NCBI GenBank assembly: GCA_005191425.1
Contig: SUPR01000156.1
Location: 1 to 6,309 of the forward strand
Direction: 5' to 3'
From: Candidatus Helarchaeota ASGARD archaeon Hel_GB_B
GTDB lineage: Archaea; Asgardarchaeota; Lokiarchaeia; Helarchaeales; HEL-GB-B
Length of the DNA stretch: 6,309 nucleotides
This document shows positions 1 through 6,309 of the stretch, one piece after another. The translations under genes were made by a program, and so were the position numbers. Under the pieces are notes generated by a model. It saw only the letters and a list, made by a program, of their open reading frames with translations. It was not told the origin of the DNA and did no database searches. Positions within the stretch are counted from its first letter, which is position 1, and each line of letters opens with the position of its first letter.

Positions 1-312
1 GGACCCGGTAATTAAAATATTATACTTATCTTTATTAACATCATACTCGCCTTTAATATAATTTTTCCATTTTGCATATTTATGAATTTCATCAAAAATA
101 ATTAGAGACGCTTCCGGATCAAAACGAGAATTTAAAATATCTTTTCTATCCCTGTGATTATCCCAATTTAAATACATATATTTCCCATATTCAGATTGAC
201 CTATTTGCTTAGCTAAGGTAGTTTTCCCGACCTGACGAGGACCACCAATAAAAACCATTTTATCCTTTAAATCATTTTTAATATATTTAAATATATTTCT
301 TTTTTTATCCAT
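1..312 (-). CDS. AAA+ ATPase (AAA_14 family, probably with DUF4143), 5' part only; runs off the left edge
   Basis: Not in the ORF track; translated by hand from ATG at 312: MDKKRNIFKYIKNDLKDKMVFIGGPRQVGKTTLAKQIG...LIIFDEIHKYAKWKNYIKGEYD...NILITGS. Walker A GPRQVGKTT, Walker B IIFDE and the ITGS motif match the two complete ATPases in the window. Confidence 0.9.
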   Translation of the reverse strand, partial: MDKKRNIFKYIKNDLKDKMVFIGGPRQVGKTTLAKQIGQSEYGKYMYLNWDNHRDRKDILNSRFDPEASLIIFDEIHKYAKWKNYIKGEYDVNKDKYNILITGS

Positions 313-587: not shown

Positions 588-1709
588 CTAGAGAATAAAA
601 TCCAAATAATTATTCTGACTAATTACTTCATATTCCGCATTATCATAAGTTTCTTTCCAAAGCTTCGGTTCTTTTACTTTTTTATCACCCCACTTAAATT
701 CAAAACCAAATAATTTTCCGTCCCGCTCTTCAACCCAATCAATTTCTTTTTGGTCATAAGTCCGCCAAAAATAATTATTGGTATAAATTGGCGTATATGC
801 CTGCTTCTTTAAGCGCTCCATAACAAGAAAATTTTCCCAGAGCTGACCAATATCATTTCTATCTGCTAAGGAATTAAACTGAGAAATAATTGCATTCCTA
901 ACACCATTATCATAAAAATAATATTTATATTTACGGCTTAATTCTTTTCTTAAATTACGGCTAAAAGAACCAAGACTTTTAATCACAAAACCTTTTTCTA
1001 AAATATCAAGATAACGATCAACTGTTTTTACATCAAGCTTTACCTGCCTTGCTAATTCATTCAAAGATACTTCGCTTCCCACTTGAAAAGCTAAAAGTTT
1101 TAACAATTTCATTAACACACTTGATGATTTAATTTTTTCTAATAATAAAACATCTTTCAGTAAATAAGAATTGCTTATTTCTTCTAAAACATTTATTTTT
1201 TCTTGCTTGCTAGCACTAGTAATACATTCTGGATAAGAACCAAAAATTAAAAAATCTTCTAATTTTTCTTTAAGTTCATACTTATTATACTTATTTAATA
1301 ATTCTTTCTGTGAAAGCGGATAAATATTTTTAGTTATTTTCCTCCCAGTAAGAGGCTCTCCTATTTTTTGAGATAAATCAAAAGAAGCTGAACCACTAAC
1401 TATAATCATTAAACCTGGAACTTGATCAATTAATATTTTTAAACCCATCCCAACATTAGGTATCTGCTGAGCTTCATCTACAACAATTAATTCATAACCA
1501 TGAGCATAAGACAGAATTTGATCAAAATCTTGAGAACTTAATATTTCTTGAGTTTTTATATTATCACCTGAATCAAGTTTATATTTTAGTTTTGTTTGTT
1601 TTAAAAATTCCTGTAATAAAGTCGTTTTTCCAACCCTCCTAGGACCATAAATAACTAAAACTTTTTGTTTTTTAAGTAAGTTATTCAAATTATAAGATCT
1701 TTTTAACAT
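588..1709 (-). CDS. AAA+ ATPase, AAA_14 + DUF4143 (C-terminal PD-(D/E)xK-like) family, 373 aa
   Basis: Walker A GPRRVGKTT, Walker B IVVDEAQ, SGSAS and EPLTGR motifs, an HTH-like segment (SLNELARQVKLDVKTVDRYLDILE), KYYFYDNG, and C-terminal EIDW...FEFKW. Confidence 0.92.
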   Translation of the reverse strand: MLKRSYNLNNLLKKQKVLVIYGPRRVGKTTLLQEFLKQTKLKYKLDSGDNIKTQEILSSQDFDQILSYAHGYELIVVDEAQQIPNVGMGLKILIDQVPGLMIIVSGSASFDLSQKIGEPLTGRKITKNIYPLSQKELLNKYNKYELKEKLEDFLIFGSYPECITSASKQEKINVLEEISNSYLLKDVLLLEKIKSSSVLMKLLKLLAFQVGSEVSLNELARQVKLDVKTVDRYLDILEKGFVIKSLGSFSRNLRKELSRKYKYYFYDNGVRNAIISQFNSLADRNDIGQLWENFLVMERLKKQAYTPIYTNNYFWRTYDQKEIDWVEERDGKLFGFEFKWGDKKVKEPKLWKETYDNAEYEVISQNNYLDFIL

Positions 1710-2057: not shown

Positions 2058-2155
2058 GACAAAACACCACCCGAAACCTATATAAGCACAAAAATCTTGG
2101 AATACAGACAAATCCTAATATCTCACCATAAAAATAATAATAAAATAATCAATTC

Positions 2156-2184
2156 ACCCCGTTAGACTTTTATTTAACTGGGGT
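2156..2184. other. Stem-loop immediately 3' of the DUF1566 gene stop (possible DGR recognition hairpin or terminator)
   Basis: ACCCC-GTTAGA-cttttA-TTTAAC-t-GGGGT: a 5-bp and a 6-bp stem with one bulge and one G.T pair, abutting the TGA. Confidence 0.45.
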
Positions 2185-2336
2185 CACCGGCAGACGCAAC
2201 GGGCATAGAAGTTAATTACCTTAATAATGTAACCAGTGCTCCCGTAGCCCAAGCCGACGTGCCAGGCACCGCCGGCACCACCATAGTCCTCGGTCGACGA
2301 CCAATAGTTGATAGCTGAATTAGGTATATTATTAGC
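2184..2336 (-). other. Putative DGR variable region VR1
   Basis: Collinear, gap-free alignment with 3599-3751. Over the last 42 codons 22 of 27 differences are at codon positions 1/2, and the final 24 nt are identical. Confidence 0.75.
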
Positions 2337-3056
2337 AGAACCATCTACATAAGCTATCATTAATTCTTTCTGGCTTGGCAAATACCAATCTGTCTCATCT
2401 ATTCCGTCACCATCCGCATCTAAACTTAAAGATTCACAAAAATCAACGCTATCTCCGCCTTCGGCATCCAATCCGTCATCTGTATCAGCAATAACGCCGT
2501 CTAAAGTAAAGCTATTTTCTATCTCATCACAAGACCCGTCCTGCGCTGATGAATAACAATCCGACCAATAAAGCCCAGTACGCGCGTCTCGCTTTACCAC
2601 CCCGGAAGCAATCGTCTCTGACCCCAGACTGGTATCAGTCGTACTTGCCCAAGCACCTTCTTCCTTATTCATATCAACCCCGCCCGCATAAGCCGAAGCC
2701 AAATCACTAGAAGTCGCGGCTTCATCACCTTTCCAATCGTCCCAGATTTGGTTTTTGAAATTCTGATAATTTATTATCGGTCCGGCATTACCATCCACAT
2801 AAACATCCTGAATAAATTCAAGCCTTTCAATAATAGACCCATCAGCATTTTCCCCAACTTGAGTTGAAGAAAAATCATTATCCGCATTATTCGCCCCCAA
2901 AATATTCTCCGTAAAATCTTGATCCGAAGCGGACGGAGCTACAGTCGGTTCAATAAAAGAAGCGCGAGTATAATAAAGTCCGGCAGAAATTAAAGCAATG
3001 CTAATCACAAGCGTCAATAATAATTTGTTTTTAAAAATAAAATTGTTTTTTTTCAT
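2184..3056 (-). CDS. Membrane-anchored/secreted DUF1566 (Lcl C-terminal, C-type lectin fold) protein, 290 aa; putative DGR target
   Basis: N-terminal basic then hydrophobic segment (LLLTLVISIALISAGLYY), an acidic stalk, and DUF1566-type motifs RTGLYW..C, FC..L, DWYLPSQKEL and YWSSTE...AW.V...G...K...ARCV. Confidence 0.85.
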   Translation of the reverse strand: MKKNNFIFKNKLLLTLVISIALISAGLYYTRASFIEPTVAPSASDQDFTENILGANNADNDFSSTQVGENADGSIIERLEFIQDVYVDGNAGPIINYQNFKNQIWDDWKGDEAATSSDLASAYAGGVDMNKEEGAWASTTDTSLGSETIASGVVKRDARTGLYWSDCYSSAQDGSCDEIENSFTLDGVIADTDDGLDAEGGDSVDFCESLSLDADGDGIDETDWYLPSQKELMIAYVDGSANNIPNSAINYWSSTEDYGGAGGAWHVGLGYGSTGYIIKVINFYARCVCR

Positions 3057-3073
3057 AAATATTATAAGCGAAA

Positions 3074-3110
3074 TTAACGCTGATTATTACGCCGAAATTA
3101 CGCAAAATTT
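3074..3110. repeat. Inverted-repeat arm downstream of the GxxExxY gene
   Basis: TTAACGCTGATTATTACGCCGAAATTACGCAAAATTT matches the reverse complement of 3546-3582 at 30/37 positions. Confidence 0.75.
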
Positions 3111-3114
3111 TTAA

Positions 3115-3516
3115 TTAATGTTTTGCTTTATTTCTGGCAGTTTCATATATTACACGTTTAATTACTAATTCTGTTGGAGAAAAATTTATCAAAAATCCAA
3201 GTTTATAGCTTGAACCTTTTAAATATTTCCAAAATTGATCAATATCACCTTTAGTTAAAACTGCTTTGCATTTTAATTCTATAATAATTTTATTTTCAAC
3301 AATTACATCAGGAATATATGTACCCACTTTTATACCTTTAAAATAAATATCAATTCTTTTTTGCGATTCAATTGTTAGCCCTTTATATTTTAAAGCAATT
3401 TGCAAGGATCTATCAATAACACTTTCTTTAAATGCCCCTCCAAATTCATTCCAAACCTCAAAACAAGCCCCACGAATCAAATAAGATTCTTTTTCATACA
3501 ACAGCTTATTAACCAT
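3115..3516 (-). CDS. GxxExxY family protein (PD-(D/E)xK nuclease-like, PDDEXK_3), 133 aa
   Basis: Typical length and motifs: IRGACFEVWNEFGGAFKESV, PDVIVENKIIIELK, YLKGSSYKLGFLINF. Confidence 0.88.
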   Translation of the reverse strand: MVNKLLYEKESYLIRGACFEVWNEFGGAFKESVIDRSLQIALKYKGLTIESQKRIDIYFKGIKVGTYIPDVIVENKIIIELKCKAVLTKGDIDQFWKYLKGSSYKLGFLINFSPTELVIKRVIYETARNKAKH

Positions 3517-3545
3517 AATTATAAACTTAAAAGCTAATCAAACAT

Positions 3546-3582
3546 AAATTCAGCGTAAATTCCGCATAATAATCCGCGTCAA
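3546..3582. repeat. Inverted-repeat arm upstream of the GxxExxY gene
   Basis: AAATTCAGCGTAAATTCCGCATAATAATCCGCGTCAA; partner of 3074-3110. Confidence 0.75.
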
Positions 3583-3598
3583 TCTCTGCAGCACACAA

Positions 3599-3751
3599 TC
3601 ACCGGCAGACGCAACGGGCATAGCCATTACCTGCCTTACTGCCGTTACCAGTGTCCCCATTGTACAAGTAGACGAGCCAGGCGTAGCCGGCATTACCATA
3701 GCCCTCGGTAGACGACCAATAGTTGGTGGCTGGATTAGGTATATTATTAGC
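3599..3751 (-). other. Putative DGR variable region VR2
   Basis: Same evidence as VR1. Scaffold codons are identical (TGG, GAG, GCC, GTC, TTG, GGG, ACT, AAG, CGT, TGC, CGG) while NNY codons vary. Confidence 0.75.
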
Positions 3752-4525
3752 AACTCCATTAATATAAGCCTGCATCAGCTCCTTCTGCGTCGGTAACCTC
3801 CAATCAGTTTCATCCGTTCCATCGCCATCCGCATCAAGGGACAAATCCAAACAATAATCAATTGCCGACCCATCACCGTCATCATCATAACAATAATAAT
3901 CTTCCGAACAGCAATTGCCGTTAATAATATCCGCGTCACTACAATCATAACCACTGCCGTCCCCTGAACAGCCCCCATCATCCCAAATATCAAAATCATT
4001 ATCAATCGTATCGCAGGATCCTTGACCGGAAGTAGAATCATAACAATCCGCCCAATAAAGTCCGGTACGAACGTCTTTTTTTACCAGCCCGGAAGCCACC
4101 AAAGATCCATTCAAATCTGTATCAGTAGAACTGGCCCAAGTCCCCTCTTCTCCCGTATACTCAGGGTCAGAAGCCGCGCAAGCCGAATCCTCTGTTTCAT
4201 CATTATTATTAGCACAATTATAATCGTCATAAACCTGATATTGCTGGGGAGCCGAATCAAACATGTTTGACTGGATATAATCCAAACGCTCAATAATACT
4301 TCCGCTTGAGCTCGCCGTAACCAAAGAAGAATCATAATCATTATCAGCATTATTCGCCCCCAAAATATTTTCCGGAAAATCCTGGTCACTTGAGCTCGGA
4401 GCCACAGTCGGCTCGGTAAAGGCGGCGAAGATATGGATTGTTGTTCCGGCGATAATGCTTAAAACAAAAATAGTTAAACTAAGCCAGAGAAGATTCTTTA
4501 ATTTTTCTATTATTTTATATTTCAT
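3599..4525 (-). CDS. Membrane-anchored/secreted DUF1566 (C-type lectin fold) protein, 308 aa, Cys/Asp-rich; putative DGR target; paralog of 2184..3056
   Basis: Hydrophobic N-terminus (LLWLSLTIFVLSIIAGTTIHIF), stalk FTEPTVAPSSSDQDFPENILGANNADND shared with the paralog, and motifs RTGLYWADC, YCLDL, DWRLPTQKEL, YWSSTE...AWLV...ARCVCR. Confidence 0.85.
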   Translation of the reverse strand: MKYKIIEKLKNLLWLSLTIFVLSIIAGTTIHIFAAFTEPTVAPSSSDQDFPENILGANNADNDYDSSLVTASSSGSIIERLDYIQSNMFDSAPQQYQVYDDYNCANNNDETEDSACAASDPEYTGEEGTWASSTDTDLNGSLVASGLVKKDVRTGLYWADCYDSTSGQGSCDTIDNDFDIWDDGGCSGDGSGYDCSDADIINGNCCSEDYYCYDDDGDGSAIDYCLDLSLDADGDGTDETDWRLPTQKELMQAYINGVANNIPNPATNYWSSTEGYGNAGYAWLVYLYNGDTGNGSKAGNGYARCVCR

Positions 4526-4596: not shown

Positions 4597-5778
4597 TTAA
4601 AATATTTCTCCACCCCAGATATAATCATTATAATTTGGCGAACTATATCTCCCGATTAAACGACTTTTTTTAACCCCAGCTTTTTTTGATAATAAGGAAA
4701 GATCTGACTGTTCTCCTAAAATAGGTTTTTCCTTAATTTCAAAAGCTTCCTTTTTATTAAAAATAAAATCAATTTCTCTCCCATTTTTTAAAGCATAATA
4801 TTGGATATCACCCTGTGCGTATAGTTGATTAAAAACTGCATTCTCAAACTTTGCACCACTATTTAAGTCTGAAAGAATTCCTGCTAAGCCATTATCTAAA
4901 AAATAGAGCTTTTTTGCTTTAACAATTTCTCTCTCGGGACTTTTTGTAAAAACCGGCACTCTTTTTATCAAATAAGTTTTTTCAAATAAATCAAGATAAT
5001 TAAGAACTGTCGGCCGACTAAATCCACAACTACGCGATAATTTTGAATAATCTAAACGAGTAGCAACACGGACTGACAATAATTTAAGTAAATTATAAAT
5101 ATCATGTTCTTTTCTAAAATCCAAAAGTGATTTTATATCAATATTAATATAAGAACTAATAATATCAAATAAAATATCTTTTTTTTGATCAGTACTCTCT
5201 GCTAAAGCAACTTCCGGAAAACCGCCATATTCAATATATTCTTCATAATAATGTCTCAAAGCTTCGTAAGCAGTTTTATTAAATTTTTTATCCTGCCACT
5301 TAAGTTCTTTTTTCCATGAAACATTTTTAAAACCCAAATATTCTCCAAAGTCTAAAGGAAAAAGCTCAAAAATCTTTTTACGCCCGGCTAACGATTCTGA
5401 AAATAAATCTTTAAGATAATATGAACTTGATCCGGTAGCAATTATTTTAATATTATAATTATCATAAAAATATTTTAAAACACTGGCAATTTTCGGTAAA
5501 AGTTGAATTTCATCAAAAGCCAAGAAAATTTTTTTCTTAATATCAATCCCCGAATTTTCCAGATCACGCATGATATTATCATAATTACTTTGAGAAAAAA
5601 GTTCACGATTATCCAATCGTTCCAAATCAATATACAACTTATTATCAGAATCAACTTCCCTTAGGAGCTCTTTTATAATGGTAGTTTTCCCGGTCCGTCG
5701 CATTCCAGTCAAAATACTAATTTGCTTTTGCTTAAGATGATCTTTTATTTTAGGATATAATTTTCTAAATAAAAACAT
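4597..5778 (-). CDS. AAA+ ATPase, AAA_14 + DUF4143 family, 393 aa
   Basis: Walker A GMRRTGKTT, Walker B LAFDEIQ, ATGSSS, ESLAGR, YGGFPE, an HTH-like segment (YSKLSRSCGFSRPTVLNYLDLFE), KLYFLDNG, and EIDF...FEIK. Confidence 0.92.
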   Translation of the reverse strand: MFLFRKLYPKIKDHLKQKQISILTGMRRTGKTTIIKELLREVDSDNKLYIDLERLDNRELFSQSNYDNIMRDLENSGIDIKKKIFLAFDEIQLLPKIASVLKYFYDNYNIKIIATGSSSYYLKDLFSESLAGRKKIFELFPLDFGEYLGFKNVSWKKELKWQDKKFNKTAYEALRHYYEEYIEYGGFPEVALAESTDQKKDILFDIISSYINIDIKSLLDFRKEHDIYNLLKLLSVRVATRLDYSKLSRSCGFSRPTVLNYLDLFEKTYLIKRVPVFTKSPEREIVKAKKLYFLDNGLAGILSDLNSGAKFENAVFNQLYAQGDIQYYALKNGREIDFIFNKKEAFEIKEKPILGEQSDLSLLSKKAGVKKSRLIGRYSSPNYNDYIWGGEIF

Positions 5779-5885
5779 ATTTTTAGATTTGCAAGAAAAC
5801 TACTTATAGTCTTCCCTTTTGTCATACTAAATTTATTTCTAATTATAAATTAGTATTTTACATTTAGTAATACTATTTATAAAGT

Positions 5886-5914: not shown

Positions 5915-5960
5915 TAGCTACCGAGTAGCTTTAAAGCTACTCGGTAGCTAAAAACTCAAA
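5915..5960. repeat. Long palindromic element, copy 2 (perfect 36-bp palindrome plus an AACTCAAA tail)
   Basis: TAGCTACCGAGTAGCTTT|AAAGCTACTCGGTAGCTA at 5915-5950. It differs from copy 1 (437-483) by one substitution and one A in the tail. Confidence 0.92.
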
Positions 5961-6161: not shown

Positions 6162-6309
6162 TTACCTATAAATATCACTACTCTTCTCAATCCTCACATT
6201 AAAGCCGGTATTATCTTTTATAAAATTCCCTTCAATATCAACTTCAGAATTAATATCTGCAAATACGCCATAGCTTTTATTGTCTGTAATAATATTGTTT
6301 TTAATAATA
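6162..6309 (-). CDS. 3' end of a parallel beta-helix (PbH1/NosD-like) repeat protein; partial at the right edge
   Basis: Hand translation: IIKNNIITDNKSYGVFADINSEVDIEGNFIKDNTGFNVRIEKSSDIYR*. It contains two I..N.I..N..G.-type beta-helix repeats. Confidence 0.65.
   Translation of the reverse strand, partial: IIKNNIITDNKSYGVFADINSEVDIEGNFIKDNTGFNVRIEKSSDIYR

Follow-up and report, generated by a model that had tools for sequence, protein, structure and literature searches.

The window considered here, 6309 bp, is an entire contig (C66) of assembly GCA_005191425.1, a 3.54-Mb genome in 182 contigs assigned to an Asgard archaeon (Helarchaeota). As discussed below, the contig probably comes from a bacterium of the candidate phyla radiation (CPR, Patescibacteria). 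All its genes lie on the minus strand (Table 1). Two of them, genes B and A, encode proteins with a C-type lectin (CLec) fold, and their C-terminal tails have the properties of variable regions (VRs) of diversity-generating retroelements (DGRs). In the nearest relatives the orthologs of these genes flank a DGR core formed by the bAvd gene, a template repeat (TR) and a reverse transcriptase (RT) gene, whereas here a PDDEXK_3 gene occupies this place. The window is probably an orphaned and drifting pair of DGR targets, which has lost the bAvd-TR-RT core and whose tails are frozen relics.

Table 1. Features of the 6309-bp window. L029 is the contig with an intact orthologous locus described in the text; T2 is its target 2.
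Feature	Coordinates	Strand	Remarks
Gene A	2184..3056	minus	290 aa; domains arranged as in gene B; ortholog of L029 DGR target 2
Gene B	3599..4525	minus	308 aa; signal anchor, conserved N-terminal module, C-terminal Lcl_C; ortholog of L029 target 1
VR-A	2184..2322	minus	TR-homologous stretch of gene A
VR-B	3599..3737	minus	TR-homologous stretch; finishes with a GC-rich end resembling the initiation of mutagenic homing (IMH) site and the stop codon; in register with VR1, TR and VR2 of L029
PDDEXK_3 (GxxExxY) gene	3115..3516	minus	Pfam PDDEXK_3, E = 5e-29; stands where relatives carry bAvd, TR and RT
Inverted-repeat cassette	3070..3586	minus	50-nt imperfect arms at 3070-3119 and 3537-3586
Insertion of 31 nt	2153..2183	minus	CCCC...GGGG stem; directly after the gene A stop codon; parts VR-A from the AT-rich box
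Post-VR AT-rich box	2130-2152	minus	identified by local alignment with the region that follows L029 T2
Decayed bAvd 5' stub	2091-2129	minus	13 codons, in-frame stop; aligned to true bAvd starts
AAA_14 ATPase gene	1..312	minus	
AAA_14 ATPase gene	588..1709	minus	
AAA_14/DUF4143 ATPase gene	4597..5778	minus	
Beta-helix gene fragment	6162..6308	minus	

The proteins encoded by genes A and B match the Pfam family Lcl_C (PF07603, formerly DUF1566) with 45.4 and 57.0 bits, respectively, the curated cut-off being 34.9. In the AlphaFold model of the gene B product, based on 59 homologs, a helix (residues 2-36) is joined by a linker of low order to a C-terminal domain modelled with confidence. The best match of this model among solved structures is the C-terminal domain of Legionella Lcl (8q4e), followed by many C-type lectin-like domains. 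In both genes the VR forms the C-terminal end of the CLec-fold domain. The claim, made from the window sequence alone, of DGR-type VRs at the C-terminus of Lcl_C/DUF1566 proteins with an N-terminal signal anchor was thus correct, and we conclude that genes A and B encode secreted or membrane-anchored binding proteins of a CPR bacterium. The N-terminal part of these proteins (residues 1-85 of genes A and B) recurs with 50-76% identity in many CPR proteins (P0078-P0119). It consists of the signal anchor and A-A-F-T/I-E-P, followed by SDQDFxxNILGANNADN ... GSIIERL. The proteins that share it carry other C-terminal domains, PF17170, PF07588 or PF09603, or none. This part resembles a module for surface display or sorting (putative).

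The last 42 codons of genes A and B, together with the stop codon, can be aligned without gaps, and the scaffold codons are identical even at silent sites. The tails differ at 28 nt, with 10, 13 and 5 differences at the first, second and third codon positions, that is, 23 at positions 1 and 2; the original prediction had counted 27 and 22. The amino acid changes in 15 codons, of which 14 are NNY in both genes. One further codon differs silently (AAC/AAT). Among codons for the same amino acid, synonymous differences are found in 4 of 35 within the last 52 codons and in 51 of 117 upstream (Fisher p = 5e-4), which bears out the predicted contrast in synonymous codon use. The ratio of differences at positions 1 and 2 to those at position 3 is 23:5 in the VR and 174:130 upstream of it (p = 0.014). 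The predicted counts of G+C, 36/60 at 2221-2280 and 22/60 at 2341-2400, are exact. The VR pattern is therefore real. The final 25 nt including the stop codon are identical in the two genes, GC-rich and IMH-like, and the stretch homologous to this end closes the TR/VR homology in L029.

Intact DGR loci orthologous to this pair exist. The protein P0003, encoded on contig L029, is 80% identical to gene B. The gene order on this contig is target 1, bAvd, TR, RT on the opposite strand, target 2, and then an AAA_14 ATPase gene. Contigs L031-L034 have the same order, with a target-1 protein (P0007) that is 58% identical to gene B. Each of these loci contains one TR and two VRs. The bAvd and RVT_1 families of the orthologous loci are confirmed by Pfam, and the translated RT carries the motif IGNLSSQ. 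Motifs of this type are a signature of DGR reverse transcriptases. Two more distant members of the family, L003 and L011, also have complete DGR cassettes, in the order target, Avd, TR, RT, and in L003 every difference between TR and VR falls on a TR adenine.

In the tree constructed from the non-VR parts, gene B is paired with target 1 of L029 (support 97/94, non-VR identity 82%) and gene A with target 2 (support 100/100, non-VR identity 68%). Hence the order B - X - A of the window, where X is the PDDEXK_3 gene, is orthologous to target 1 - [bAvd, TR, RT] - target 2.

The complete cassettes differ in orientation. In L003, L029 (2886-3038 and 3039-4208) and L031 the TR shares its strand with avd and the targets. 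The RT gene is read from the other strand and meets the TR with its 3' end, a convergent arrangement. In L011 the RT gene is on the same strand. The L011 target (10001-10863) stops inside the VR, although this DGR is otherwise complete. The halves of the TR/VR repeat are spaced by 744 and 743 nt there, so that one base must have been gained or lost. Either a real frameshift in the target or faulty assembly of a heterogeneous VR could account for this.

The orthologous TRs of L029 and L031 allow one to ask which positions vary in the window. Of the 15 amino-acid-variable codons, 13 are AAY in both TRs, as had been supposed for codons of this kind. The exceptions are the codon ATT/AGT, which is AAT in the TR of L029 and ACT in that of L031, and the codon GTA/GCA, which is ACG and ACC, respectively. 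Over the TR-homologous stretch VR-A and VR-B differ at 30 positions, 22 of them on adenines of the L029 TR and 8 elsewhere. The comparison of VR-B with the L029 TR itself yields differences at 23 adenine and 10 non-adenine sites. Judging from these sequences, the C-terminal tails of genes A and B, approximately 139 nt each, were written by mutagenic retrohoming from a CPR-type DGR template.

The origin of the contig determines where a missing core may be sought. A search of 185,579 species genomes produced 16 related loci, all of them in Patescibacteria, including Parcubacteria and Falkowbacteria; the original prediction had noted that DGRs are common in CPR. The named homologs of the window proteins are from Patescibacteria as well, and no homolog was found in any of 150 other genomes of the phylum of the assembly. 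The order of a beta-helix protein gene followed by paired surface-protein genes is also observed in the Parcubacteria genome L001. The contamination of the Asgard assembly is estimated as 4.9%. The contig is probably CPR DNA mis-binned in the Helarchaeota genome, i.e. bin contamination. The other 181 contigs of this assembly (G000) do not belong to the CPR host, and thus the absence of RT and TR elsewhere in it is uninformative about the host. In L001 a gene for a 23S_rRNA_IVP or bAvd-like four-helix bundle (8102-8542) is situated immediately upstream of the paired surface-protein genes; RVT_1 was not found in the L001 genome.

The window contains no cognate TR, DGR-clade RT or Avd gene, a statement that does not cover the host genome. 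A tblastn search with bAvd and RT of L029 and L031 found no remnant of either in the window, L025, L028, L001 or G000, the only match being the bAvd stub of L030 described below. The search of G000 with RVT_1 (PF00078) gave no match either, but this is the Asgard bin and not the host. Homology of the gene B region to the relatives ends three bases past the stop codon. Nearly the entire gap between genes A and B is spanned by inverted repeats with 76% complementarity and 417 nt between the arms. They bracket the PDDEXK_3 gene like a self-contained cassette.

A similar situation is observed in a second lineage, L030. There a bAvd stub of 44 codons (10335-10466), 75% identical to the bAvd of L029, follows the second Lcl_C gene, and neither TR nor RT was found by tblastn or among the called genes. 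Between the two targets of L030 lies a different, tandem PDDEXK_3 gene, 39% identical to that of the window and having its own flanking direct repeats (8090-9270). We consider L030 to be a second, independently decayed DGR locus. This suggests repeated losses of the core, in each case with a PDDEXK_3 gene as the present occupant of the place between the targets. The PDDEXK_3 cassette may itself have been the cause of the loss and not a later arrival.

The downstream flanks of the VRs also deviate from those of the intact loci. A conserved AT-rich box comes directly after the VRs of L029, L031 and L036; in L030 it comes after the downstream VR. In the window it is absent after VR-B, and after VR-A it is displaced by the 31-nt insertion, which was delineated by comparison of the post-stop sequences of L029, L031, L030, L036 and the window. 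By analogy with the structure downstream of the Bordetella phage VR, the box may matter for targeting.

Beyond the box of VR-A lies the decayed start of bAvd, reading M-V-R-Y-stop-D-L-S-V-F-Q-D, where true bAvd proteins have MARYQHLPVFQD. The same truncated stub follows target 2 in L029. Thus the stub is old and is not a trace of the recent loss of the core; it shows that target 2 is a duplicate of target 1, copied along with the beginning of avd. Downstream of the stub there is a perfect hairpin at 2029-2056, with the arms GTAGAGACG and CGTCTCTAC separated by a loop. L036 has a similar hairpin (2165-2192) past its post-VR box, at the place where avd is expected, and the start of an open reading frame, MELYKNKYRI, comes next. 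These hairpins may be a REP-like (repetitive extragenic palindrome) element at rearrangement junctions.

Are the two VRs still diversified? The two VRs of one locus differ at 23 adenine and no non-adenine sites in L029, at 22 and 1 in L031, and at 22 and 8 in the window. The excess of non-adenine differences is significant (8/85 in the window against 0/85 in L029, Fisher p = 0.007). Six of the eight fall on third codon positions, and comparison with outgroups assigns five to VR-A and three to VR-B. At non-adenine sites the window VRs are as distant from each other as VRs of different lineages (8 compared to 3-12). A single TR would reset these sites at each homing event, and therefore eight differences require either separate TRs or a long time without homing. 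We also considered one TR common to both VRs. In four codons the third position is affected too, and such a template would need AAA codons in these places; the outgroups show the four differences to be C/T changes at non-adenine sites, and this possibility was rejected.

Searches for a template gave the following results. Apart from the two VRs themselves, blastn with both VRs (word size 7, two scoring schemes) found no TR-like copy in the window or in G000. The scan of the assembly proposed in the original prediction thus retrieved only the two VRs, and it says nothing about the host, as the bin is that of an Asgard archaeon. The metagenome contigs of JGI, including those of the sample with this contig, were scanned with a 71-nt scaffold pattern allowing any base at the variable sites and A at the doubtful ones; only the contig with the two VRs was found, and no third, TR-like copy. 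Among Logan contigs of four runs that cover 2100-3850 with at least 80% likeness there was no variant VR and no TR-like contig, but this test is weak: only contigs were compared, three of the runs have low depth, and a TR with approximately 80% identity lies just at the threshold, so that nothing follows about its absence. An ortholog of the RT was not found among 5.8 billion proteins, a collection that includes three assemblies of this organism. By similarity to the L029 RT, the protein itself is followed by one with 84% identity, which belongs to a cassette of its own in two other samples; the next ones have at most 66%.

Four other assemblies of the same organism are 99.3-99.8% identical to the window and have 36 sites with single-nucleotide polymorphisms (SNPs), none of them in either VR. 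Four near-identical versions of gene B share one VR and have two residue differences outside it. However, identity of the VRs across assemblies was rejected as strong proof of inactivity, since the intact relatives are equally invariant and the absence of SNPs in 276 nt is not significant.

Taken together, these observations are best described by the following scenario. A single CPR-type DGR template would have written both tails by mutagenic retrohoming in a locus with the layout that is retained in the nearest relatives, target 1 -> bAvd -> TR <- RT -> target 2. This lineage would then have lost the core between the targets, with the PDDEXK_3 gene and its inverted repeats taking its place. 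Since that time the VRs would have been frozen as ordinary coding sequence, in which drift produces mainly silent substitutions and both genes remain intact. Under this scenario the VRs are probably no longer rewritten, and we infer that no other DGR in the host genome still rewrites genes A and B.

Several observations weigh against this scenario. As the other 181 contigs are those of the Asgard archaeon, a DGR core may exist elsewhere in the true CPR host. Both VRs retain the identical 25-nt end and intact reading frames and may be competent targets. The DGRs of CPR often show several substitutions other than A-to-N (Wu et al. 2018, PMC5758913), and thus three to five such changes per VR are not by themselves proof of inactivity. 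The JGI pattern required an exact match, and a TR with one scaffold change would have been missed. The absence of SNPs from 276 nt of VR has a chance probability of p = 0.2, and the intact P0007 locus (L031-L034) is equally invariant across four samples. Finally, protein P0002 (L036), 86% identical to gene B, differs from it at nearly all AAY sites, and hence diversification ran until fairly recently in this clade, up to shortly before this lineage branched off. In the 122 nt that the contig encoding it covers past the stop codon, no avd directly follows the post-VR box.

The original prediction was that of a remote array, in which a distant DGR diversifies both genes in trans. In this case the core, with RT, Avd and one or two TRs, would have been moved elsewhere in the CPR host rather than lost. 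Targets not adjacent to the core are known for 45 of 372 DGRs (Wu et al. 2018, PMC5758913). In the same study, distances of more than 100 kb between target and RT were found only for Lineage 4 DGRs and their neighbours in the tree. The preserved VR ends and open frames are compatible with such an array, the host genome is unsampled, and relatives can have more than one Avd-type gene, as there is a second bAvd at the end of L031. On the other hand, the core of the relatives lies between the same two genes, and here this ancestral place is empty of it, the PDDEXK_3 cassette being found instead. The eight non-adenine differences, compared to none or one in the intact loci, would need two TRs or a long period without homing. 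No TR-like copy is seen in the JGI sample holding the contig, and no orthologous RT in the protein collection with three assemblies of the organism. The post-VR box is lost at one VR and displaced at the other. A relocated core is therefore unlikely. Still somewhat less likely is that such a core continues to rewrite one or both genes, probably from separate TRs, after its displacement by the PDDEXK_3 inverted-repeat cassette; if this were so, genes A and B would represent a CPR case of remote DGR targets.

It is highly improbable that the core-less layout results from mis-assembly or represents a rare deletion haplotype in a population that carries the intact cassette. DGR loci are rich in repeats and often mis-assembled, the target of L011 with its frameshift at the VR being an example, and two Logan contigs from other runs show skip joints of unknown content. 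However, the order gene B - PDDEXK_3 - gene A is also present in independent ENA and JGI assemblies (L026, L027), the Logan contigs of the best run agree with the core-less order along most of the stretch, with hardly any deviating letters, and no contig was seen that joins RT or Avd to genes A or B.

Hardly any room is left for an origin without a DGR, with gene conversion homogenising the 3' block of the paralogs and positive selection then changing the ligand-binding codons: the silent-site identity of the block is as expected from conversion, and at two codons where the L029 TR has AAT/AAC both window VRs have GGT, but the match between variable codons and AAY codons of the TRs at both orthologous loci, which rules out plain conversion with selection, as well as the share of differences on TR adenines, the NNY form of the codons in both genes and the fact that the orthologs are demonstrably targets of one TR, all contradict it. 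The original prediction had kept in reserve a relic, or conversion with positive selection; the relic is the part that fits better, and the orphaned pair remains the preferred explanation.

Further repeats lie around the flanking AAA_14 ATPase genes. A 40-nt palindromic element occurs twice (433-476 and 5915-5954, 98% identity) at the boundaries of these genes. The ATPase gene 588..1709 is preceded by three tandem 32-nt repeats (1802-1897), and two of the AAA_14 ATPase genes have a 47-nt repeat (1926-1972 and 5836-5882) in common in their upstream regions. These genes resemble duplicated modules that carry their own control regions.

The closest known systems are the DGRs of the CPR clade, described as the "CPR set" (Wu et al. 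2018, PMC5758913) and as DGR clade 2 (Roux et al. 2021, PMC8144416). Points in common are the host group, a C-terminal VR in a CLec-fold protein and an AAY-rich TR, to which the orthologous loci add bAvd and an RT bearing the IGxxxSQ motif; the direct orthologs L029 and L031 represent this type in complete form. Unlike these systems, the window has only the two targets and lacks bAvd, TR and RT. In the intact relatives the core is flanked by two targets, while a single target is the tendency among CPR DGRs (Wu et al. 2018, PMC5758913).

LdtA of Legionella pneumophila and the other VRs of the DUF1566/CLec2 class (category 'd' of Wu et al. 2018, PMC5758913) share with the window proteins the DUF1566/Lcl_C domain, the VR at the extreme C-terminus and surface display by an N-terminal signal. 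However, LdtA is a lipoprotein of a diderm bacterium with a working cassette, whereas the window proteins have a signal anchor, a CPR-specific N-terminal module and no cassette. The DGR of Treponema denticola, the model behind the idea of a remote multi-target array, also has several paralogous CLec-fold targets (TvpA and remote ones) for one TR. In Treponema that TR matches all targets in the genome, whereas no TR was found for the window, and one TR cannot fit both of its VRs, which differ at eight non-adenine sites. The degraded DGR of Anabaena sp. 90 (PMC7517822) resembles the window in the loss of components and the presence of mobile-element genes nearby. It retains only the RT, whereas the window retains the opposite half, the targets without RT, TR and Avd.

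CPR DGRs, targets of the DUF1566/CLec-fold type and non-adjacent targets have all been described already. In the literature we found no paper on targets that outlive their core, and the degraded Anabaena cassette is mentioned only in passing (PMC7517822). Such targets are the expected end state of DGR decay. The finding is mostly a clean worked example rather than a new mechanism, and L030, with an unrelated PDDEXK_3 gene between its two targets, provides a second lineage without the core. If the contig is indeed CPR DNA, claims of an Asgard DGR or of lectin-fold surface proteins of Asgard archaea drawn from assembly GCA_005191425.1 would be wrong. The locus illustrates the death of a DGR: the targets outlive the enzyme and the template, keep their reading frames and gain mostly silent substitutions at sites that the retroelement does not touch. 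The number of non-adenine differences between sister VRs, none or one in intact loci and eight in the window, provides a simple, clock-like test that tells live from frozen targets without population data.

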